This document shows, piece after piece, positions 10,928 through 37,183 of a stretch of 37,183 nucleotides of DNA. The stretch's first letter is position 1; the number at the start of each line of letters is the position of its first letter. The stretch spans positions 1 through 37,183 of the forward strand of contig JBDTOH010000002.1 of the NCBI GenBank assembly GCA_039933355.1. Reading direction: 5' to 3'. The notes under the pieces are model-generated. The model ran no database searches. It saw nothing but the letters and a program-made list of their open reading frames with translations, and had not been told where the DNA came from. The position numbers and the translations under genes were made by a program. The stretch is from Gemmatimonadota bacterium. GTDB taxonomy: Bacteria > Gemmatimonadota > Gemmatimonadetes > Gemmatimonadales > GWC2-71-9.

Positions 10928-13900
10928 CTAGTCACGCCGAACGGCGTCTTCTCCGAGGACGGCACCGAGCGCGTCGATCAGCTGGTCGGTGTCGGCGGGA
11001 CCAAAGCACAGCGGGGGCTTGATCTTGATCACGTTATGATCCGGCCCGTCGGTGCTGAGCAGGACCCCCTTGTCCCGCATCCGGTTGACGATGTAACTCG
11101 CGGCGCGGGCATCGGGAAGTCGCTCCGAGCGATCCGCGACCAGCTCGATTCCCACGAAGAGCCCGACACCACGGACGTCTCCGATCACCGGGTGCCGAGC
11201 CATGAGCTCCTGAAGCCGAGCGAGGAGGTCGTTACCGGTTTCGAGCGCCCGCCATTGGAGTCGCTCCCGCTCGATCACGTCGAGAACCGCGAGCCCGATT
11301 GCGGCGGACACCGGATTCCCGCCGAAGGTGCTGAAGTACTCCATGCCGTTCGCGAACGACGCGGCGATCTCGGCGCTGGTCGCTACGACGCCTAACGGGT
11401 GCCCGTTGCCGGCCGGTTTTCCCATCACCACGATGTCCGGAACGACGTCCTGAGTCTCAAACCCCCAGAAGCGGGCTCCGACCCGGCCGAACCCGACCTG
11501 CACTTCGTCGGCGATCGCGACCCCTCCGGCGGCACGGACCCGCGCGTACACCTCCTTCAAGTAACCCGGCGGCGGGACGATCTGGCCGCCGCAGCTCAGG
11601 ATCGGCTCGGCCAGGAACGCACCTAACGGTTGGCCCGCTTCCGCCAGCGCCGCGATCGCCCCGTCTACGTGCGCGGCGTAGGCCGTGCCGATTGACGGAC
11701 CGGTTCCGCGGTAGAGGCCGCGATAGGGGTCGGGAAGGGGGAGCTTCCGCGCGTACGGCGCGAGCCCGCGGCCGCCCGGCCCTTCGCACTTGTAGGGGCT
11801 CAGCTCGACCAGCGTGGTGGTGTTGCCGTGATACGCGCCGTCGAGCACGATCGTTCCGCGGCGGCCGGTGTGGGTCCATGCCAGCCGGAGCGCCAGCTCG
11901 TTGGCCTCGCTGCCCGAGTTGACGAAGAAGCAGACCCGGAGCGGATCGGGCAACGTGGCGGTGAGCCGCTCGGCGTAGCGGATCACCGTCTCGTGGAGGT
12001 ACCGCGTGTTCGTGTTGAGCACCGCCATCTCGCGCCGGCCGGCGTGAACCACGGCGGGATGCGAATGGCCGACATGCGAGACGTTGTTGACCGCGTCGAG
12101 GAACCGGCGGCCCTCGGCGTCGTAGAGATGCTGCATCCAGCCGCGGACGATGTGGAGCGGTCGCCGGTATGACACGCTCAGGTTCGGACCGAGCAGCCCG
12201 CGCCGCCGCGCGAGAATGGCGGGGCCGTCGAGCGCGTCCCGATCCCGGAGGTCGGGCACGCCGGCCAGAACATGGGGATCCGGGCTCAGGCTCCGCCACA
12301 CCCGGCGCTCGGCCGGCCGCGCGACGCCCGGGAACTCGCCGGTCCGGTCGAGGAGATCCGTGATGAGCTGGAAGTGAACGTGCGGCGACCAGCCGCCGTT
12401 GACGGCCGGCCCGCCTAACCGTCCGACGATCGCCCCCGCGGAAACCGGCTGGCCGGGTGAGACATCGCGGAGCGTCTCGAGGTCGAGATGGCCGTAGAGA
12501 GTATAGAATCGCCCGCCGCCGTCGCCGTCCTCGAAGGAGTGCTCGACGATCACGGTGGGGCCGTAGTCGCCCGGAGCGGCGTTGTTCCGCACGCTCTGGA
12601 CTTTGCCCGCGACTGGTGTGCGCACCGGCGTGCCGGCGCTCGCAAACAGATCGACCCCGAGGTGAATCGTGCGCCACTCCGGCCCCTCGATCCCCTCGAC
12701 CCGGTACTGAGCCGTCGTGTAGACCAGCCGGGCCTCGTCGTACTCCCCGATCCCAACCCGCGCGCCGCGCTCGGCGAGGAACCTCTCGATCCTGCCGCTC
12801 AGGCGGGGCTCGTCCGCGAGTAATCTCAAGTCGTCGATGAATGGGCTTCCCACCGAAAGGTCGATCCGCGCCGTTCTTCCACCCTCGGCATCCAGCGGGA
12901 TCACCGGGTTGAGCTCGCTGCGGTGTGCCTCGATCCATCGCGAAACCCGGACCGACGCCGGGGCCGGGTCGCGGCTGCAGGCATCCCGAAGCCGATAGTG
13001 CGCCAGGCGCGGATGGATATCGGCGAGGCGGGTGAGAAGCTCCCAGGCCGGCGCTTCGCTGATCACGAGATACGCGTCGTCCGGCATCACGGCGCGCTGC
13101 ATCGCGGAATTGACGACGCTCACGGCCAGCCGGGCGACGACCAGCGGGAACACGGCGGCCAGCTCCTGGTCCGTCAGCGGGTTCACCCGGTTGTAGCCGG
13201 CCACAATCGCACCGGCGACCGCGATCGGGTCCGCGGAGCGGAGCATTGCGTACGCGGCCGCGACCGCGATTTCAGCGACTCGGGCCGTCCGGAGCATGTC
13301 GCCGAAGTCGATGATGCCGACGGTCGGCGCCGACTCGTCAGCGCCGCCGGCGACGAGCACGTTGTAGTCGTTGCCGTCGTTATGGATGATCTGCGCGGGC
13401 AGCCGGTCCCAGATCGGCGCCACCTGCTCGCGGTAGGCGCGGAACATCCGCTCGACGAGGGCGCGCCGGCTCGGGTCTCGGATTGCTTCGAAGTGCCCGG
13501 CGATCCAGCCCGCTTGAGCGAGGTCCCATTTGAGGCTCCGGGTCGCAGCCGGGTGGTCGAGCCCGGCGAGCGCGGCGTCGATCCGGCCTAACAGCTCGCC
13601 GAGGGCCTCGAGCTGCGCGGGGGTCTTGGGGTGGAGCTCGGCGAGGGGGACACCGGGGACCCAGGTCAGCATCCGGGCCAAGTGGTGCGTACCGCCGAGC
13701 GGGACCGTCACGATATCGCGCCGATCAGGCGTCCGGATGACCCTCGGGGCCTGGGCGAGAGGGGCGGCGGCCGCGATCCGCTCCATGGCCGCGTGCTGAA
13801 GCTCCAGGACGGACCGGTCTTCCGTGCCGTTGGCGATCTTGAAAACCGCCCGCTGGCCGCCCGCCGTCTCGATCAGGAAGTTGCGATCGCGCTCGCTGGG

Positions 13901-14032
13901 CAGCTCGGTTGCGGTTCCCTCGAGCCCGAAGTGCTCGGCGGCGAGCCGGGCCGCTTCGGCCGGGTCGATTGGAGGTCGTGGATAGACCAGTTGGACGTCG
14001 GTGCGGGGTGCGTTTGTCATGGGTCGGCTCAC
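10928..14032 (-). CDS. Tri-domain fusion: APH-family kinase (hydroxylysine-kinase-like) + M23 peptidase-like domain + class III aminotransferase-fold enzyme of the AGXT2L/phospho-lyase type
   Basis: Kinase part (about nt 13960-13000) has the Brenner motif IIHNDGNDYNVLV and IIDFGDM. M23 part (about nt 12760-12350) has HLGVDLFASAGTPV, YGHLD and SPHVHFQL. PLP part (about nt 12200-10940) has LDAVNNVSHVGHSHP, ADEVQVGFGRVG and MGKPAGNGHPLG. The start is GTG 14032, or alternatively ATG 14020. Confidence 0.85.
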   Translation of the reverse strand: MSRPMTNAPRTDVQLVYPRPPIDPAEAARLAAEHFGLEGTATELPSERDRNFLIETAGGQRAVFKIANGTEDRSVLELQHAAMERIAAAAPLAQAPRVIRTPDRRDIVTVPLGGTHHLARMLTWVPGVPLAELHPKTPAQLEALGELLGRIDAALAGLDHPAATRSLKWDLAQAGWIAGHFEAIRDPSRRALVERMFRAYREQVAPIWDRLPAQIIHNDGNDYNVLVAGGADESAPTVGIIDFGDMLRTARVAEIAVAAAYAMLRSADPIAVAGAIVAGYNRVNPLTDQELAAVFPLVVARLAVSVVNSAMQRAVMPDDAYLVISEAPAWELLTRLADIHPRLAHYRLRDACSRDPAPASVRVSRWIEAHRSELNPVIPLDAEGGRTARIDLSVGSPFIDDLRLLADEPRLSGRIERFLAERGARVGIGEYDEARLVYTTAQYRVEGIEGPEWRTIHLGVDLFASAGTPVRTPVAGKVQSVRNNAAPGDYGPTVIVEHSFEDGDGGGRFYTLYGHLDLETLRDVSPGQPVSAGAIVGRLGGPAVNGGWSPHVHFQLITDLLDRTGEFPGVARPAERRVWRSLSPDPHVLAGVPDLRDRDALDGPAILARRRGLLGPNLSVSYRRPLHIVRGWMQHLYDAEGRRFLDAVNNVSHVGHSHPAVVHAGRREMAVLNTNTRYLHETVIRYAERLTATLPDPLRVCFFVNSGSEANELALRLAWTHTGRRGTIVLDGAYHGNTTTLVELSPYKCEGPGGRGLAPYARKLPLPDPYRGLYRGTGPSIGTAYAAHVDGAIAALAEAGQPLGAFLAEPILSCGGQIVPPPGYLKEVYARVRAAGGVAIADEVQVGFGRVGARFWGFETQDVVPDIVVMGKPAGNGHPLGVVATSAEIAASFANGMEYFSTFGGNPVSAAIGLAVLDVIERERLQWRALETGNDLLARLQELMARHPVIGDVRGVGLFVGIELVADRSERLPDARAASYIVNRMRDKGVLLSTDGPDHNVIKIKPPLCFGPADTDQLIDALGAVLGEDAVRRD

Positions 14033-30226: not shown

Positions 30227-32152
30227 ATGAGCGAACGAACTCAAGTGAATGTTCCGGCCGGTGCCGGCGATCCGATCGATCGTCTCCTCGCCCAGGTGAG
30301 GGATGCGGCCGCGGGGATCTACGATGTCCTCGGCGAGATGGGGCGGAGCAAGCGCGGGAACGTCGTCTATCTCGCCCGCGAGATCGAGACGTCCCGGCTC
30401 GTGGGCCTCAAGCTCACCAGGAAAGGCACCGCCGCCGACGGCGAGGAGTTCGACCTCGAGGTGCTCCGGGCCCTCGACAACTCCGTTCCGGGACTCGAAA
30501 GCAAGTGTCCCGAGTGCAAAGCAGTGCTGCCCGACTGGGAGCGGTTCTGTTTCCGGTGCGGGGCTGATCTCTCGAGCGTCGGATTCAACCCCGGCGGTGA
30601 AGAGGCGGCGCAACTGCTCCAGGCGGTGAAGGACGCGACCGCCGGCGACTACGAGATTCTCGGCCAGATGGACCGGGCGGACGGATCCGGGGTGGTGTTC
30701 TTCGCGAAGGACATCAAGCGCGACAGACTGGTCGCGCTCCGGCTCAAACGCGACGAGACGAGCGCCGGCGACCAGGCCGCCTACTACATCGGCGAGACCC
30801 AGGTCTTCAAGCCGCTCGCCGCCGAGCTTGGCGCGACGCAGGTGTTAGGCGCGGCGCAGCAGCCCGCGCTGCCGACTCCGCCGTCCATGCCCGCCGTCTC
30901 GCCATCGCAGGCGTCAGAAGTAGCGGCGTCGTCGCCGTCGACGGAAGTGCCGGTCGCACCGCGCCTTCCTGCACCGCCGAAGAAGTTTCCGATGAAAGTT
31001 CTGCTCGGAATCGGCGGGCTTGCCGTGGTCGGCGTGATCGCCGCCTTGGTGTTCAAGCCCAGCGACGGCGGAGGCAAGACCGGGGGCCCGGTTACCCCCC
31101 CGCCCGCGCAGCCGCCCGCACCGCCGCCGGGACCGCCAACCGTACCGCCAACCGTGCCCCCGCCCGAGCCGCCGCCGGAGCCACCGCCGCCTCAGCCTCC
31201 GGTCGCGTCCACGAATCCGGACTCCGGCACGATCACGATCGCGACGAAGCTGCCCCGCGACGCCCGGGTCACGCTCAATGGGCGAGCGCAGCGCGGCCTT
31301 TCCTTCCGGGTGCCGCCCGGGAACCACGTGCTCGAGGTCGTCGCCCAGGGGTACCAGCCGGTCACTTCGAGAATCCAGCTCAAGGCAAATCAGGTGTATC
31401 GCTGGCGTCCCGAGCTCGCCGCCGTGGTAGCTCAGGCGCCGCCGCCGCCCCCTCGGCCCGATCCCGCGCCGCCGCCCCCACCCCCCAAAGAGACCTGCAC
31501 CCGCGCCTTTGGCCGGAACGATTGGGCCCTGGCCGCGGACCTCTGTCAGAAGGAAGCCCAGGCCGGCGACGTAGCGGCCGAGCGGACGCTCGCGAAGCTG
31601 CAAGAGGACGGCAAAGGTGTTCCACAGGACCGAGTCCAGGCCGCTAACTGGTTTCGCAAGGCCGCCGAGGCCGGCGATCGCGAATCGATGCTCAAGATGG
31701 GTTACCTGTATCGGACCGGTACCGGTGTGAAGAAGGACGAAACCCAGTCCGCCATCTGGTTCAAGAAGACCGCGGAAGCCGGCGACCCGGTGGGTGAGCT
31801 CGAATACGGCGTTGCGCTCGAAAACGGCGACGGGATCTCGAAGAACGAGTCCGAGGCGGCGGTATGGTACAAGAAGTCGGCGGATCACGGCAATTCCTTC
31901 GGGGCGCGCCGGCTCGGCCGGCTCTATGAGCGGGGCAAGGGCGTCCGGAAGAACGAGGCGGAGGCCAAGGTCTTCTACGAGGCGGCGGCCAACAAGGGCG
32001 ACTCCGAGGCCCAGTATCTGTTAGGCAAGCTCTACAAGGACGGGAAGGGCGTCGAGAAGTCGCCCACGATGGCGCTCGAGTGGTTCAAGAAGGCCGCCGC
32101 CCAGGGTCACAAGGGTGCGGCAGACGAAGTGAAGGACCTCCTGAAGCAGTAG
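30227..32152 (+). CDS. Single-pass membrane protein: duplicated kinase-N-lobe-like modules + zinc ribbon / TM / Pro-rich / PEGA / Sel1 repeats
   Basis: Zinc ribbon CPECKAVLPDWERFCFRCG (nt 30506-30559). TM segment MKVLLGIGGLAVVGVIAALVF. Pro-rich linkers. PEGA-like domain GTITIATKLPRDARVTLNG..PPGNHVLEVVAQGYQP (about nt 31226-31381). At least five Sel1 repeats (AANWFRKAAEAGD, AIWFKKTAEAGD, AVWYKKSADHGN, KVFYEAAANKGD, LEWFKKAAAQGH). Confidence 0.8.
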   Translation: MSERTQVNVPAGAGDPIDRLLAQVRDAAAGIYDVLGEMGRSKRGNVVYLAREIETSRLVGLKLTRKGTAADGEEFDLEVLRALDNSVPGLESKCPECKAVLPDWERFCFRCGADLSSVGFNPGGEEAAQLLQAVKDATAGDYEILGQMDRADGSGVVFFAKDIKRDRLVALRLKRDETSAGDQAAYYIGETQVFKPLAAELGATQVLGAAQQPALPTPPSMPAVSPSQASEVAASSPSTEVPVAPRLPAPPKKFPMKVLLGIGGLAVVGVIAALVFKPSDGGGKTGGPVTPPPAQPPAPPPGPPTVPPTVPPPEPPPEPPPPQPPVASTNPDSGTITIATKLPRDARVTLNGRAQRGLSFRVPPGNHVLEVVAQGYQPVTSRIQLKANQVYRWRPELAAVVAQAPPPPPRPDPAPPPPPPKETCTRAFGRNDWALAADLCQKEAQAGDVAAERTLAKLQEDGKGVPQDRVQAANWFRKAAEAGDRESMLKMGYLYRTGTGVKKDETQSAIWFKKTAEAGDPVGELEYGVALENGDGISKNESEAAVWYKKSADHGNSFGARRLGRLYERGKGVRKNEAEAKVFYEAAANKGDSEAQYLLGKLYKDGKGVEKSPTMALEWFKKAAAQGHKGAADEVKDLLKQ

Positions 32153-32158
32153 CCCGGC

Positions 32159-33691
32159 CTAACGGGTGAGGTGCTTGATCAGCTCGCCGATCGCCGTGGC
32201 GATCTGCTTGGCGGTGCCGGGGCCTTTGGTAACGATCCAGTGGATCAGCGGCGGCCCGTAGGTGAATGCGGCGTGGACGGCCAGCATCGCCATGCCGATG
32301 AACAGCAGGCTCACCCCCATCAGCAGCAACGCCCCCGCGGCCGCCACGACCATTCCGACGGCAAAGACCGCATAGGCGAAGGCCATGAGCGGAAACAGCA
32401 GGATTCGCCGGAGCAGGTGTCGCTCGACTTTTCCCGTCCCATGCACCACCACCGCCCCGGCGGCTTCGAGCCGGTTGCGCCGTTTCCAGACGTTAGGGTG
32501 GAACCCGCCCCATACCGGAATCGATCCCGAGCCGCTACCGGCCACGAACAGCAGTGAGGTCACGCCGGGCATCATGCTCTTGTCGCTGGAGTCGAGCAGT
32601 GGTAGCGCGGAGGCGAGCGCGGTTGGATTTCGGGTGAGCTGGACCGCCGACATATCCGCGAGATAGCGGCGCGCCCGCCACACGGCCGCGAGCAGCGGGC
32701 CATACACCATCTGGGAGCCGAGCATCGAGAGGAATTGCGCGGTGGCGGCGCCGAGCCCGACCGGAATGATGATGACCGCGAGGATCCCCGGACTCCGGCC
32801 CGACGAGCCCTGGTGGTGGTCCTTGGGGTCCGTGGCCTCACCCGAAGCAAGCAGGGCTGCGACTTGTTCGATCTCGGTTCGGTCGCGGCGCCGGAAGGTG
32901 CTCTTGATTGCCCGCCACAGGCTCCGGCGAGCGCCCGCCTCGGCCGGCGCAGCCAGGATCACGCCGAGCAGCCCGAACGCCTGGAACACTGAGAGGAGAC
33001 GGGTCAGGACGATGAGATCGCCGTTGACGATCGACGCGATCCCGTGGCCAATGATCGCCTGGGTCTGATTGCGATCGAGCTTCTCGAGGAGACCGCGGGT
33101 TACGACCAGCGCCGCATCGGTCTCCGACGACCCGACGGTCGCGACGTTGGCGGCGCTCCGGTCGAGCAGCATCACGGCCGGCGGACGAATCCCCGCTGCG
33201 ATCGACATCTCTTCGACGAGATTGACGAGCTGGCGCTCCTCGAGATCGTTGGGCTTCGGTAGACGGGCGCCGAGGCTGAGCAGCACGCCTCCGGTGCCGG
33301 CCCGCCGGAAGAGCGCCTTGACCCAGAGCCAGGCGAGAAGCATCGCTGCCATGCCGGGGATGATCACCGCGAGCGCGATCTCCGCCATCAGGGTCCAATC
33401 GACGCCGCCGAGGCTCTTGGTATCGACGACATGCTCGATCTGGGCCGCGACGACGGGAACCGTTCTCCCGGTCTGGTCGAGGAAAGCCCAGAACGCGGGT
33501 GAGATCGGCGTGAACAGGTTGATCAGGTGCGCCCCGGTGAGGACGAACAGGAACAAGATTGGCGTGACGATGACGCTGATCGGGATGCCCGCGAGGAGAA
33601 CGGCGAGGATCGAGAGACCGGCGAACTTGAAGGTGCGCCGCCGGTTTACGGCCTGTTCCTCGTAGAATGTGGTGCGTTCGATGGGGGTCAC
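32159..33691 (-). CDS. M48-family (HtpX-like) membrane protein with degenerate zinc site (HGIAS instead of HExxH)
   Basis: GTG start. The family-typical N-terminus is TTFYEEQAVNRRRT followed by a TM segment. The core GGVLLSLGARL..DLEERQLVNLVEEMSIAAGIRPPAVMLLD..ALVVTRGLLEKLDRNQTQAIIGHGIASIVNGDL is colinear with active M48 enzymes (..VIAHEFSHILNGDM). Nt 33032-33046 encode H-G-I-A-S. Confidence 0.7.
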   Translation of the reverse strand: MTPIERTTFYEEQAVNRRRTFKFAGLSILAVLLAGIPISVIVTPILFLFVLTGAHLINLFTPISPAFWAFLDQTGRTVPVVAAQIEHVVDTKSLGGVDWTLMAEIALAVIIPGMAAMLLAWLWVKALFRRAGTGGVLLSLGARLPKPNDLEERQLVNLVEEMSIAAGIRPPAVMLLDRSAANVATVGSSETDAALVVTRGLLEKLDRNQTQAIIGHGIASIVNGDLIVLTRLLSVFQAFGLLGVILAAPAEAGARRSLWRAIKSTFRRRDRTEIEQVAALLASGEATDPKDHHQGSSGRSPGILAVIIIPVGLGAATAQFLSMLGSQMVYGPLLAAVWRARRYLADMSAVQLTRNPTALASALPLLDSSDKSMMPGVTSLLFVAGSGSGSIPVWGGFHPNVWKRRNRLEAAGAVVVHGTGKVERHLLRRILLFPLMAFAYAVFAVGMVVAAAGALLLMGVSLLFIGMAMLAVHAAFTYGPPLIHWIVTKGPGTAKQIATAIGELIKHLTR

Positions 33692-33700
33692 TGGCGCCCG

Positions 33701-34057
33701 TTAGAACGGCGGGCCGTAATTGATCGCGGCGAGGCGGCCCGGCCGGGGGGTTGGACCGGGGAGTTGGAGCGCCCCGAACGGCGAAAGGAGGGGCCGGGAA
33801 ACGTCGAGCTGGTGAACGAAGAAGACGACCCGCGTCCTTCCGTCGGGAAGCTGCTCCACCGGCTGCTCATCGTGCGGGAGCGAATCGGTGTCGACTGCGT
33901 CCTCTCCCTCGGGGTTGGACGCGATATCCGGGTCGTCCTGCCGGAAGGAACCCCAGTCGACGTCGTCGAAGGCGTCGCTCACCAGCACCTCGACGAGATG
34001 GATGGGCTCTACGGTGTCGACCGGGTAAACCCCGACGATCTGGATGGTACCAGCCAT
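33701..34057 (-). CDS. Small acidic hypothetical protein (118 aa)
   Basis: ATG 34057 with GAAGGA about 8 nt upstream. G/C-rich third positions. The Asp/Glu-rich centre reads DDVDWGSFRQDDPDIASNPEGEDAVDTDSLPHDEQPVEQLPDG. The stop is 9 nt before the M48-like start. Confidence 0.6.
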   Translation of the reverse strand: MAGTIQIVGVYPVDTVEPIHLVEVLVSDAFDDVDWGSFRQDDPDIASNPEGEDAVDTDSLPHDEQPVEQLPDGRTRVVFFVHQLDVSRPLLSPFGALQLPGPTPRPGRLAAINYGPPF

Positions 34058-34137
34058 TGAACAATCCTTCTGATTCGTGATGGACCGCAGATGAAAGGCG
34101 GGATCCAGATTCCGTTCACACGCTCAACGCCGACGGC

Positions 34138-34488
34138 TCAGACAAAATCACGGCGATCCAGCTCGGGGAAGGTGATGGTGCACGTTGCCGGATCGATCCC
34201 CTCGATGCGGACCTTCCCGTTCTGATCGAGGCGGCCGGTGACATGCTTACCGTTACCGACGAGCACGTCGAACGCAGCGCCGGGGACCGGCTTCTTGTCG
34301 GTATCGACGAGCTCGATGCCGATGAAAACGTCGGCCTTGTCGGGATCGACGACGAGAACCGAAGGCCCGGGCTTCCCGCTGCCGATCGAGCCGACGGCAG
34401 GCTCGCCCGGAGGGGGAAGGGGGCCGAGCTGGCAGGGAATGCACTCACCGAAGGCTTTGGTCTGCTCGTCGCGGAGCTTGGCCGTCAT
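34138..34488 (-). CDS. Hypothetical 116-aa protein carrying a beta-domain paralogous to the PAAR protein mid-region
   Basis: ATG 34488 lies 1 nt after the DUF4123 stop, with GGAG 9 nt upstream. Residues 55-111 (nt 34156-34326) are FIGIELVDTDKKPVPGAAFDVLVGNGKHVTGRLDQNGKVRIEGIDPATCTITFPELD. They align with PAAR protein residues 170-226. The N-terminus contains ECIPCQ. Confidence 0.65.
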   Translation of the reverse strand: MTAKLRDEQTKAFGECIPCQLGPLPPPGEPAVGSIGSGKPGPSVLVVDPDKADVFIGIELVDTDKKPVPGAAFDVLVGNGKHVTGRLDQNGKVRIEGIDPATCTITFPELDRRDFV

Positions 34489-34489
34489 C

Positions 34490-35047
34490 CTAGACGCTCC
34501 GGACGACGACGGGCTGAGCGCGTTCGACGCCCGAAGCCGCTTCGGGTCTCATCATGACGGTGACGCCATAGGTCGCCGGGTTCGTGAAGCCGACCGCGCG
34601 GGCCGGCCCGAAGAAATCCGCCAGCTCGCTCGACGTGCAGGTGGGGAGATACGCTTCCAGCACCCGCGGATCGTAGAATCGAAAATACCACTGGTCGCCT
34701 TCGGGCGTCTCAGCGACGAGAAACTTTCGATAGTGCTGGCGGAGAGCTTCGAGCGGTTCATCGCTGAGGACGAAGAATCCCCAGGGGGTTGGCCAGAGAG
34801 TCGAAGTGATCCACTCGTACGTGAGCTCATCGACATCGAACAAGTAGGGGGCGATTGCCGCGAGATCTTCCTCCGCCCGCCCTTTATAGAGGGACACGGC
34901 GCCCCGCTCGCCGACGTCTCGAGCGCGGTGCCACACGCCGGGCGCATCGCACGCGTCGACGACGGCCCGGAGCCGGCCGGCTTCGGCCCACCGCCGAATC
35001 TGGAGCACCGTGAACTCGCGTTGAGTCAGCTGCACGGGTCGCTGCAT
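34490..35047 (-). CDS. DUF4123-family protein (T6SS effector chaperone/adaptor family, Tap-1/TEC-like)
   Basis: 185 aa. The family pattern as I recall it is RAVVDACDAP..LYKGRAEEDLAAIAPYLFDV..WGFFVLSDEPLEALRQHYRKFLVAETPEGDQWYFRFYDPRVLEAYLP..LADFFGP. The FRFYDPRVL block is the hallmark. Confidence 0.7.
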   Translation of the reverse strand: MQRPVQLTQREFTVLQIRRWAEAGRLRAVVDACDAPGVWHRARDVGERGAVSLYKGRAEEDLAAIAPYLFDVDELTYEWITSTLWPTPWGFFVLSDEPLEALRQHYRKFLVAETPEGDQWYFRFYDPRVLEAYLPTCTSSELADFFGPARAVGFTNPATYGVTVMMRPEAASGVERAQPVVVRSV

Positions 35048-35219: not shown

Positions 35220-36440
35220 GTGTCGAAGCCCGCCGCCCGCCTGCTGGACATGCACGTCTGTCCGATGATCACGGTGCTGGTCCCGCACGTAGGCGGCCCG
35301 ATCGCGGGCCCCGGGGCTCCCACCACGCTCATCGCCGGAATGCCCGCTGCGCGGGTGACCGACATGTGCGTGTGCGTCGGTCCGCCGGATGTGATCGTAC
35401 TGGGATCGTTCACCGTGCTGATCGCCGGGATGCCCGCGGCCCGAGTTGGCGATCTGACCGCTCACGGCGGAACAATCCTTCCGCCGGGTTGTCCCACGGT
35501 TCTGATCGGTGACTCGGGCGGTGGCGCCGGCAGTCCGCAGGCGCGGACGATGGGCGCGGCCAAGGCGCAGGGCGCCGCGTTCACTCGCATGGGCTGCGCG
35601 GCCGAAGGCGTTATGCAGGCGCTGAAGGACTCTCCGCTTTTGGCGACCGGAGATCCCAATAAAAAAAGCTGGATCGAAATCGAACTGGTCGACCAGAAGG
35701 GCAAGCCGATACCGCACGAGCGGTTTCGGGTCGTTCCGCCGGACAAAAAACCGGTCGAAGGGTTTCTGGACGACAAAGGGTTCGCGCGAGTAGGGGGAAT
35801 CGACCCGGGAACCTGCGTGATCAGCTTCCCCAACCTGGACGCGGCTTCGTGGAAGCCCGAGGCTGGAGATCCGGGCCGGCGGGCAAAACCCGAAGTCGTT
35901 CCGACCGCCGGGCGGCCATCGATTGGGCCGGTGACGGTGCGCGGGCTCTTTGTCGGCAGGCCGTCCGTTGGACCGGTCAAAGTCAAGACGGTCGGACCCT
36001 CGATTGATCCGGTGCCAACTCCGACTTCACGACCGGGTGTGGGGTCCGTCACTACCCGCCTCGTGGTCGGGCCGTCGATCGGTGCCGTCAAGGTCAAGGT
36101 CCTGCAACGCAAGGCGCGCTTCGTCACCCAGATTCCGAACACGGTCCGCAAGGGAACGGTCCTCACCGTGCGGGGCCGTGACGGGAAGGAACTCTCGCGC
36201 GAGGACGTGGCTGCCGGCGCGAAAGGTCCCACGTTTCTCACGATTCCGCTCGATGAATTTCTCACCGAAGGGCTGGTCACCATCGAGATCGCATTGGCCA
36301 ACGGCAAAGTCGTGAACGGATTCTCCGTCGACCTCACGACGCTCCTCGCGGTTCAGCAGGCAGGTGCGACGATCGAGCGATTCGCTAAAGACCTCGGGCT
36401 CAACTTGGGTCCCGCCATCACTTCGCGCGACGACCAGTAG
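35220..36440 (+). CDS. PAAR-domain spike protein with about 300-aa C-terminal extension (no recognisable toxin domain)
   Basis: The preferred start is GTG 35220 (SKPAARLLDMHVCP), with AAGGAG at 35204-35209. The listed ORF starts at ATG 35163. PAAR domain features: PAARLLD, HVGGPIAGPGAPTTLIAGMPAARVTDMCVCVGPPD, LIAGMPAARVGDLTAHGGTILPPGCPTVLIGD. The extension has a beta-domain (nt 35670-35849), short GPS-I/V-GPV-K-V-K repeats (nt 35907-36101) and an unknown C-terminal domain. Confidence 0.85.
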   Translation: MSKPAARLLDMHVCPMITVLVPHVGGPIAGPGAPTTLIAGMPAARVTDMCVCVGPPDVIVLGSFTVLIAGMPAARVGDLTAHGGTILPPGCPTVLIGDSGGGAGSPQARTMGAAKAQGAAFTRMGCAAEGVMQALKDSPLLATGDPNKKSWIEIELVDQKGKPIPHERFRVVPPDKKPVEGFLDDKGFARVGGIDPGTCVISFPNLDAASWKPEAGDPGRRAKPEVVPTAGRPSIGPVTVRGLFVGRPSVGPVKVKTVGPSIDPVPTPTSRPGVGSVTTRLVVGPSIGAVKVKVLQRKARFVTQIPNTVRKGTVLTVRGRDGKELSREDVAAGAKGPTFLTIPLDEFLTEGLVTIEIALANGKVVNGFSVDLTTLLAVQQAGATIERFAKDLGLNLGPAITSRDDQ

Positions 36441-36443
36441 CCC

Positions 36444-37183
36444 ATGGACGTCTTTCTTCTCCATGTCGCGGTGCTCGAGCTCCGGCACTCGTCGGATCAT
36501 CAGAGCTGTGGGTACGGGCGGACCACGGAGGCGACGGTCTCCGTCAAGGTGAACGACGCGGCCATCGCCCCGGTGCTCACGACTTTCGGAAGCGATTTCG
36601 CGTTCAGCTCCCCGCTCAACCCCGAGGATCGGCTCACCATTACGGTCACGCCGAAGAATCCCGATTTCCATGTGATCGATGGGGGCTTCGTCTACCAGGG
36701 CGACGGGCAGTTTCGCCGGCGCGCGGACACGCCGATCGAGCGGGCGGGTTTCGCGCCGCCGCAGTCGATTCAGTTCGACGTGACGCTTGGTCTGGTGCCG
36801 CTCAACGCGGCGCTGTTCCAGTGTTATGTCTCGAACCTCGCTGACGTCACCACGAAAGTCGCGGGCATCCTCTCCAAGGCGGCCGGCGGCGTCGACGTGA
36901 TCGCGCAGTTGGAGGCTGCGGAGAACAATCATTGGATTCGGCCAACACCGGTCCCGAACGCCGGGTCGCCGCCCCAGTACGAGGTTCGCCAAGTCGATCC
37001 GCGCGCGAACATCCGCTGCTACGAGATTGGCGGGAAGGTGATCCCCAAGCTGGTCATGACGACATGGCCCAAGAACGTCGACAACGCGGTCTCCGCGCTG
37101 CCGGGCCTCGTCATGGTTCATCCGATCCTCAGTGCCTACTACGCATCGAGCAAATACCCGTTCGGCAAGCAGCACCTGTGGGA
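36444..37183 (+). CDS. Unlisted ORF downstream of PAAR gene, 3' end outside window (candidate cargo/effector, function unknown)
   Basis: ATG 36444 is 3 nt after the PAAR stop. I checked the frame codon by codon and it is open for 246 codons to the window edge, with overwhelmingly G/C third positions. The product begins MDVFLLHVAVLELRHSSDHQSCGYGRTTEATVSVKVNDAAIAPV. It is absent from the ORF track, presumably because it has no in-window stop. The listed antisense ORF 36027..37175 is the mirror artefact. Confidence 0.7.
   Translation, partial: MDVFLLHVAVLELRHSSDHQSCGYGRTTEATVSVKVNDAAIAPVLTTFGSDFAFSSPLNPEDRLTITVTPKNPDFHVIDGGFVYQGDGQFRRRADTPIERAGFAPPQSIQFDVTLGLVPLNAALFQCYVSNLADVTTKVAGILSKAAGGVDVIAQLEAAENNHWIRPTPVPNAGSPPQYEVRQVDPRANIRCYEIGGKVIPKLVMTTWPKNVDNAVSALPGLVMVHPILSAYYASSKYPFGKQHLW

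Follow-up and report, generated by a model that had tools for sequence, protein, structure and literature searches.

A serine hydrolase-like protein family encoded beside type VI secretion spike genes in Gemmatimonadota and other bacteria: a candidate effector family

We analysed a 37,183-bp stretch of DNA from a Gemmatimonadota bacterium (contig JBDTOH010000002.1; here called the window), near whose 3' end an open reading frame (ORF) starts directly after the gene of a PAAR protein, a spike-tip component in type VI secretion systems (T6SS). The frame encodes the N-terminal part of a protein of about 520 residues, whose family is named X here. A preliminary description of the window had presented it as a candidate effector of unknown family, and this proposal stands, with the effector role suggested by synteny and predicted fold. 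The PAAR gene (35220..36440, forward strand) ends with TAG at 36438-36440, which is followed by CCC (36441-36443) and by ATG at 36444-36446, the surrounding bases being CAG TAG CCC ATG GAC. As described earlier, the frame thus begins 3 nt past the PAAR stop, and it is open for 246 codons, reaching base 37183, the final base of the window. The window is the entire contig, and the 3' end of the X gene has been cut by the assembly. The frame is missing from the ORF track because that track leaves out any ORF that continues past the end of its source.

The GC content at codon positions 1, 2 and 3 of the forward frame is 0.63/0.44/0.84, a pattern also shown by neighbouring well-supported genes and in agreement with the gene-like third-position G/C reported before. 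When the frame was codon-aligned with six homologous loci, the ratio of nonsynonymous to synonymous substitution rates (dN/dS) was 0.14-0.27, and differences piled up at third positions (against locus L002, for instance, 42/22/98 at positions 1/2/3); both results indicate purifying selection acting on this frame. On the other strand lies a 382-aa ORF (36027..37175, reverse strand), which is long and present in the mechanical ORF list and would be the true gene if the forward frame were open merely by chance in GC-rich DNA. Its GC content by codon position, 0.82/0.45/0.64, is the mirror image of that of the forward frame, and its product is rich in Arg (16%), Asp (10%) and Glu (9%), a bias that the preliminary description had already pointed out; the two features together are typical of a shadow frame in GC-rich DNA. 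The antisense ORF also runs into the 3' end of the well-supported PAAR gene, and it is the product of the forward frame that has 13 family representatives and many close homologues. With GC pattern, family representatives and dN/dS on the side of the forward frame, the antisense gene is refuted and its probability practically nil. By these sequence signals the frame at 36444 is a real gene. A further candidate, stop-codon read-through giving a PAAR-X fusion, was suggested by the arrangement in the window, where the two genes are in the same frame (TAG CCC ATG); it was ruled out, as the relative frame is not conserved and varies among homologous loci, which have a 2-nt spacing or a TGATG overlap.

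In a HMMER scan that covered all of 1.84 billion cluster representatives, the X fragment had only 13 relatives. The closest full-length relative, P0003, has 520 aa and is 80% identical, with residues 1-246 aligned to residues 1-246; the window (36444..37183, forward strand) therefore carries the first 246 codons, or about 47%, of a protein of ~520 aa. This assignment draws on the coding signals, the alignment with P0003, an AlphaFold (AF2) model, Foldseek matches and invariant residues. Full-length members have 471-562 aa; the exception is P0006 (983 aa), in which X occupies residues 474-983. X was found in Gemmatimonadota, Acidobacteriota (Pyrinomonadaceae and Vicinamibacterales), Verrucomicrobiales, Candidatus Methylomirabilis, one gammaproteobacterial metagenome-assembled genome (MAG) and the isolate Methylomonas sp. 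AM2-LC (WP_347988924.1), and the nearest relatives (68-81% identity) are Gemmatimonadota MAGs. Every named member is annotated as 'hypothetical protein'. Ten full-length members had no meaningful Pfam match at E ≤ 1, and X was unmatched in NCBIfam, PADLOC and PHROGs, so that the full-length relatives matched neither a housekeeping family nor any other. Sequence and profile searches of the PDB with X gave nothing meaningful. With the 246-aa fragment, a word-indexed protein search returned only the fragment itself and one 176-aa fragment, and genome and metagenome locus scans gave no matches. The window encodes an Abhydrolase_1 protein of its own, for which hhalign gave a probability of 0.6% against family X. 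In the literature we found no description of family X or of the gene cassette with which it is associated (see below), and both are absent from a 2026 review of T6SS accessory factors (PMC13584744). Judged by its database matches, X is a rare, unnamed and conserved family.

The structure of the full-length protein was predicted for P0003 with an AlphaFold model built on a diverse alignment of 12 sequences, which reached a predicted local distance difference test score (pLDDT) of 81.9 and a predicted template modelling score (pTM) of 0.86. Residues 1 to ~95 of the model are all-beta and form a sandwich of nine strands, while in the C-terminal half strands alternate with helices. The small beta-sandwich previously proposed for the first 90 or so residues was thus recovered in the prediction. 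The resemblance to C2 domains proposed with it was not: there was no Pfam C2 match, and the sole domain-sized structural match was to a PEGA/prealbumin-like domain (probability 0.99), a PEGA-domain match over 90 columns in a viral structure library that presumably covers the N-terminal sandwich. Residues ~96-246 of the window fragment form a mixed region leading into the first strands of the predicted alpha/beta-hydrolase core, and a conserved strand end, L-x-x-x-H-P, lies within the fragment at residues 222-227. This remainder matches no toxin family, as had been stated before; it is not fold-less, since it is predicted to be the start of an alpha/beta-hydrolase domain.

In the Foldseek comparison with the PDB the model had 54 matches at E ≤ 1e-3, and the best 50 of the 54 were all alpha/beta-hydrolase serine hydrolases. 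Peptidases of the DPP4/FAP/prolyl-oligopeptidase (S9) group were matched at E values of ~4e-5, and the metagenomic esterase 6z68 and the chlorophyllase 8fjd at a probability of 0.98. In the viral structure library, most of the better matches were phage or giant-virus esterases, lipases and a prolyl oligopeptidase. As far as the model can tell, the likeness of X to solved alpha/beta hydrolases is one of fold only.

Residue conservation was assessed in an alignment of 18 members of X (numbering of P0003). Ser351 and Asp381 are present in 18/18 sequences, and His495 in 17/18, being absent only from the truncated P0004. The nucleophile motif is [GAS]-[FMY]-S-x-[GA], which in the clade of the window reads GFSSG (G349-F-S351-S-G353). 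In the model Ser351 is flanked by strand 345-350 and helix 353-363, where the nucleophile elbow (Sm-x-Ser-x-Sm) of alpha/beta hydrolases is situated; Asp381 follows strand 374-380, and His495 is at the start of the last helix (494-509). The three residues keep the order nucleophile, acid, histidine, and were assigned from sequence and position in the model. All of them lie past the end of the window and are known from the 80%-identical P0003. On the basis of the model and these invariant residues, X is very probably a Ser-Asp-His hydrolase, and fold and motif would place it within the alpha/beta-hydrolase superfamily, in none of its curated families.

The genomic surroundings of X were compared in close and in distant relatives. 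X directly follows a PAAR gene in the window and in L001-L007, L011 and L012 (about 10 related loci), and the PAAR proteins of these relatives have 385-404 aa. The distance from PAAR stop to X start is -1 to +3 nt in all nine loci examined, which fits the translational coupling that the preliminary description had suggested from the window. A DUF4123 gene is adjacent to PAAR-X in the window and in L005, L006, L011 and L012, and is absent from several PAAR-X loci (L002, L003). In the window this gene (34490..35047, reverse strand) is divergent from the PAAR gene and encodes a member of the T6SS Tap/Tec-type effector adaptor family (PF13503, E 8.6e-31; weak Tla1 match); the same divergent gene is found in L005, L006, L011 and L012. 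On the 3' side of X, relatives have in this order a protein of 136-151 aa (referred to here as the ~141-aa protein), a ~215-aa LysM + PG_binding_1 protein (LysM-PGB, where PGB stands for peptidoglycan-binding), a 415-480-aa protein with an N-terminal OmpA-like region and a variable gene, whose product is of the phospholipase D (PLD) family, metallophosphatase-like or unknown. The 136-151-aa proteins start with MAERIKARVGD, and hydrophobicity at their N-terminus is low (maximum KD19 0.5-0.9). A small gene of the kind looked for downstream of X is present in relatives; its product lacks a signal peptide and is a candidate immunity protein. Hydrophobic segments resembling signal peptides or transmembrane segments were found in none of X, the 141-aa protein, a 118-aa protein encoded upstream, the LysM-PGB protein and the OmpA-like protein. 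X and its peptidoglycan-binding partners thus carry no Sec signal and would need a non-Sec route to reach a periplasm.

Some of these loci call for separate remarks on their assembly. In L001 the copy of X becomes divergent and has a stop at codon 176, close to where the contig ends (L001:700-799), an assembly artefact, and another artefact, a run of N with duplicated flanks, lies inside the 141-aa gene of L002 (L002:6500-6620). L011 and L012 (JAEUJH010000740.1 and JAEUJH010000759.1) belong to one Gemmatimonadetes MAG and hold two near-identical modules of M48-like, DUF4123, PAAR and X genes on separate short contigs; the pair is either a true duplication or a case of co-binned strain variants.

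Outside the Gemmatimonadota clade X is not beside PAAR, and is found directly after an OmpA-like gene with a LysM-PGB gene alongside. The order is LysM-PGB, OmpA-like, X in L013 and OmpA-like, X in L010; in Methylomonas (L008) OmpA-like and X are followed by a convergent PGB gene and by a gene for a 285-aa protein, which at its C-terminus shares 45% identity with the transthyretin (TTR)-like domain of the window PAAR protein. On the contig of P0009 the order is OmpA, DUF4280 (PAAR-like), PGB, OmpA-like, X. The locus of Ca. Methylomirabilis (L016) begins with TssB/C and VgrG and continues with three groups: LysM-PGB, OmpA-like and a 734-aa unknown protein; LysM-PGB, OmpA-like and X; and an OmpA-like protein fused to another C-terminal region. 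X is here seven genes downstream of TssBC and VgrG. The VgrG is bona fide (TIGR03361, E 2.6e-200), and the TTR-like domain of the window PAAR protein recurs at its C-terminus. Two fusions were observed. In the 983-aa P0006 (Verrucomicrobiales, MCC7376602.1; L015:10001-12952) an OmpA-like protein is fused to X, and in a 779-aa protein of Methylomirabilis (L016:11704-14043) an OmpA-like protein is fused to an unrelated region of ~450 aa. As sequence features, these fusions suggest that the OmpA-like protein acts jointly with its downstream partner.

The two peptidoglycan-binding partners are not confined to X. A profile search with the N-terminal region of the OmpA-like protein found at least 769 clusters, annotated only as 'OmpA family' or 'peptidoglycan-binding'. 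One locus with a member of this family (L018) has the order VgrG, 128-aa protein, PAAR, PGB, OmpA-like, 309-aa protein, OmpA-like, 441-aa protein; another (L019) has PGB, OmpA-like, 380-aa protein and 285-aa protein, with no T6SS gene within 10 kb. Elsewhere the slot after the LysM-PGB and OmpA-like pair holds PLD-family, metallophosphatase-like or unrelated unknown proteins. The cassette is made up of a LysM-PG_binding_1 protein of ~215 aa, a Cys-rich OmpA-like protein of ~410-550 aa and a third gene that varies. Copies of it recur, often in tandem and often behind VgrG, PAAR or DUF4280, for example in L016:3219-14043, L018:6625-12863, L005:4162-7673, L006:3764-9321 and L019:9276-12595. An N-terminal loading domain common to X and the other cassette cargoes (the 885-aa and 734-aa proteins, the PLD proteins and proteins of 497 and 517 aa) was sought and not found.

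Taken with its predicted fold, these surroundings make it reasonably likely, in our judgement, that X is an effector with serine hydrolase activity that is loaded on the T6SS spike. X reads as a polymorphic cargo effector because three spike components occur upstream of it in independent lineages, because of the TTR-like domain and the DUF4123 gene present in several loci, and because its slot is swapped with unrelated enzymes. Among T6SS effectors, PLD enzymes (Tle5-like) are already known. According to this reading, the X gene would be co-translated with a PAAR protein bearing a TTR-like domain and a conserved C-terminal extension, and X would be loaded on the PAAR/VgrG spike, possibly helped by the neighbouring DUF4123 adaptor. 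The T6SS would then fire X into a neighbouring cell, where it would hydrolyse an ester or amide bond in the envelope of the target. The most plausible substrates would be a phospholipid, which is what the Tle lipases attack, or a linkage associated with peptidoglycan; partners that bind peptidoglycan and have no Sec signal are sensible if they are injected into the target periplasm, which would favour an envelope substrate. Spike loading, secretion, toxicity and substrate are steps that we infer, as is protection of the producer by a small neighbour, be it the 141-aa protein downstream or the 118-aa protein upstream. More tentatively still, and with less confidence than we attach to the effector role itself, X might be one of many interchangeable cargoes of an undescribed, widespread T6SS delivery cassette, in which the two peptidoglycan-binding proteins would be a new class of co-injected adaptor or anchor that keeps polymorphic toxins at the target cell wall.

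X is probably a new family of T6SS effector, an effector of a kind that is itself known. Beyond Proteobacteria and Bacteroidota, the effectors of the T6SS have hardly been explored, and X would add an unnamed serine-hydrolase family linked to spike genes for Gemmatimonadota, Acidobacteriota, NC10 (Methylomirabilis), Verrucomicrobiota and some Gammaproteobacteria. The genes that accompany X suggest that a variable toxin slot is marked by two peptidoglycan-binding proteins, a pair that is common and undescribed. If this is true, the pair of LysM-PGB and OmpA-like proteins would be of use as a genomic marker when soil and sediment metagenomes are searched for new T6SS toxins, and X would be a new catalytic scaffold among interbacterial toxins.

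Several observations weigh against an effector role of X. No T6SS gene was found within 10 kb of X in Methylomonas (L008) or in L013, L010, L015 and L014. T6SS core genes are also absent from the window contig, which would make the PAAR gene and its neighbours an orphan PAAR island; orphan effector islands far from T6SS core loci are common. Whereas the Tli proteins that confer immunity to Tle lipases are periplasmic, the ~141-aa downstream protein has no signal peptide, and X loci that do not belong to the PAAR clade lack any small immunity-like gene downstream. In L005, moreover, a 131-aa, 29%-identical paralogue (L005:7708-8103, reverse strand) of the ~141-aa gene (L005:3681-4136, forward strand) follows an unrelated 885-aa protein, which is odd and hard to square with a toxin-specific immunity role. 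On the structural side, a first AlphaFold model built on a shallow alignment of close homologues had a pLDDT of 40 and was discarded, and the Foldseek E values of the later model are modest, with low query-normalised TM-scores (0.17-0.25). Secretion and toxicity themselves are suggested by synteny and fold.

X might instead not be a toxin, and act as an accessory enzyme or scaffold in a three-part, peptidoglycan-directed complex with the LysM-PG_binding_1 and OmpA-like proteins, which would for example anchor or process spike cargo or open the wall locally while the real toxins are encoded elsewhere. PGB, OmpA-like protein and X form the conserved core across phyla, and adjacency to PAAR is confined to one clade; P0006 joins the OmpA-like protein and X in a single chain, and most non-PAAR loci have no immunity-like gene. 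We nevertheless consider an accessory role unlikely, as the OmpA-like family is at least 50 times commoner than X (at least 769 clusters against 13 representatives) and is paired with many unrelated third genes including PLD-family genes, so that X looks like exchangeable cargo and not like a fixed subunit, and as all three proteins lack a signal peptide for export to the producer's own periplasm. The module of PGB, OmpA-like protein and X might also work essentially without the T6SS, say as an envelope or defence module carried by a mobile element, and stand next to spike genes because variable islands bring them together, not because of delivery. In Methylomonas sp. AM2-LC the module has an HTH_17 excisionase-like gene for a neighbour and lacks T6SS genes within 10 kb, the latter are likewise absent around L010, L013, L014 and L015, and the patchy distribution across phyla suggests horizontal transfer. 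PAAR, DUF4280 and VgrG immediately upstream in independent lineages, the conserved stop/start coupling to PAAR and the TTR-like domain common to PAAR, VgrG and the 285-aa neighbour in Methylomonas all speak for a link with the T6SS, and PADLOC gave no matches save a weak OmpA-motif similarity to ZorB; a T6SS-independent module therefore appears quite unlikely. An anti-phage defence system, for which this similarity to ZorB was the sole PADLOC signal, was rejected as a candidate.

The remaining alternative keeps the effector role and differs on ancestry: X could be a diverged member of the known T6SS lipase families with a GxSxG motif, Tle1-Tle4. X is like Tle1 and Tle3 loci, as described in PMC9860674 and PMC13133936, in its GxSxG-type elbow, its predicted alpha/beta-hydrolase fold and its place near spike genes and DUF4123. 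Such an origin seems improbable to us, since the ten full-length members without a Pfam match at E ≤ 1 have no detectable Tle-defining domain, there is no NCBIfam match, no Tle structure is among the best 50 PDB matches of Foldseek, no lipoprotein-type immunity gene is adjacent, and the architecture with an N-terminal beta-sandwich is different.

A spike-loaded hydrolase X can be set beside several known systems. With Tle1-Tle4, GxSxG phospholipases carried on VgrG or PAAR, often via DUF4123, it would have in common the predicted alpha/beta-hydrolase fold, the Gly-x-Ser-x-Gly elbow, a position beside spike genes and DUF4123, and the lack of a Sec signal; a PLD-type (Tle5-like) protein fills the equivalent cassette slot in a sister locus. 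Unlike Tle1-Tle4, X does not match the domains that define these families (e.g., DUF2235 of Tle1 and DUF3274 of Tle3, in Pfam at the threshold given above), has the N-terminal sandwich, and lacks an adjacent gene for a periplasmic lipoprotein (Tli) for immunity; a lipase activity of X is putative. The S9 prolyl-oligopeptidase/DPP4/FAP peptidases and the bacterial and plant carboxylesterases, which were the best Foldseek matches, resemble X in their beta-rich N-terminus, C-terminal alpha/beta-hydrolase domain and Ser-Asp-His order. They differ from it in that identity is 8-13% at query-normalised TM-scores of 0.17-0.25, that the N-terminus of X is a ~95-residue sandwich and not a propeller, and that there is no sequence match. 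The divergent arrangement of the DUF4123 gene and a TTR-bearing PAAR gene in the window, and the TTR domain at the C-terminus of the Methylomirabilis VgrG upstream of X, recall cargo that depends on a DUF4123 (Tap-1/Tec) adaptor and TTR-extended PAAR and VgrG proteins, in contrast to the PAAR-X loci L002 and L003, which have no DUF4123.

Esterases of the LysB type from mycobacteriophages combine PG_binding_1 with an alpha/beta-hydrolase that attacks an envelope linkage. X likewise teams a serine esterase-type fold with peptidoglycan-binding domains, and phage esterases were among its viral structural matches; there is no sequence similarity, however, the domains are on separate proteins in the case of X, and the context is that of the T6SS and not of phage lysis. 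OmpA-superfamily, PG_binding_1 and LysM domains are also tied to injected toxins in polymorphic toxin systems, as Tox-OmpA and as PGB/LysM adhesion domains (PMC3482391). Tox-OmpA was described as an extreme C-terminal toxin domain of proteins delivered by Photorhabdus virulence cassettes (PVC) (Zhang et al., 2012; PMC3482391), whereas the OmpA-like domain at the X loci is N-terminal in a separate protein of ~410-550 aa, which stands before, or is fused to, a variable partner and is linked to T6SS spike genes.

The PAAR protein of the window has a long C-terminal extension. Its PAAR domain (PF05488, E 2.6e-21) covers residues 41-106 and is followed by a TTR/prealbumin-like domain, Gly/Pro-rich short repeats and a conserved C-terminal domain that is 45-61% identical across 9 loci. 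The TTR/prealbumin-like domain occupies residues 166-230 in the 425-aa reading from ATG 35163 (window 35658-35852). The start of the gene is probably GTG 35220, not the mechanically called ATG 35163, because AAGGAG lies 9 nt upstream and homologues begin with MSKPAARL. The Gly/Pro repeats, which sit between the TTR-like and the conserved C-terminal domain, are degenerate (GRPSIGPVTV / GRPSVGPVKVK / GPSIDPV / GPSIGAVKVKV) and extend over residues ~240-320 (window 35880-36130).

Four proteins encoded near X have in common one TTR/prealbumin-like domain of ~65 residues (W-I-E-I-x-L-V-D...F-P-x-L-D): the window PAAR protein, a 116-aa protein of the window, the VgrG of L016 at its C-terminus (L016:2913-3098) and the 285-aa protein of Methylomonas (L008:12327-12545, reverse strand). 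Such a shared domain may be a docking element. The 116-aa protein (34138..34488, reverse strand) consists mainly of this domain, has weak CarboxypepD_reg and SpaA matches, is 42% identical to residues 147-230 of the PAAR protein and has homologues in L011 and L012.

It belongs to an operon divergent from the PAAR gene (32159-35047, reverse strand), in which the genes for the DUF4123 protein, the 116-aa TTR-like protein, a 118-aa protein and an M48/HtpX-like protein with five transmembrane segments follow one another, and which is kept in L011 and L012. The DUF4123 protein may be a chaperone for X or for the membrane protein downstream. The 118-aa protein (33701..34057, reverse strand) is acidic, with an isoelectric point of 4.1, and has no signal peptide; it is 68-70% identical in L002, L003 and L005, its gene is conserved divergently upstream of PAAR-X in relatives, and it is a candidate for a second immunity protein or a chaperone. 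The last gene of the operon (32159..33691, reverse strand) encodes a 510-aa polytopic membrane protein with five hydrophobic segments and an M48/HtpX-like metalloprotease core (PF01435 and HtpX models). It is 54-56% identical in L011 and L012, where it also stands after DUF4123, and it may or may not belong to the PAAR module. Beside a DUF4123 adaptor, such a polytopic and metalloprotease-like product is unusual; it might act as a second effector or in immunity, or have no connection.

The remaining genes of the window are housekeeping genes, for AcrB/OEP/HlyD efflux, aminotransferases, an ABC transporter, glutamine synthetase and peptidases. Adjoining the PAAR island, a 641-aa protein (window 30227-32152, forward strand) combines an N-terminal zinc-ribbon, a Pro-rich linker, a PEGA domain and five Sel1 repeats; a link between it and the island is not established. 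Further upstream, a 1034-aa ORF (window 10928-14032, reverse strand) that is unrelated to X joins Peptidase_M23 (residues 456-557) to a class-III aminotransferase (residues 626-1025), an unusual fusion.

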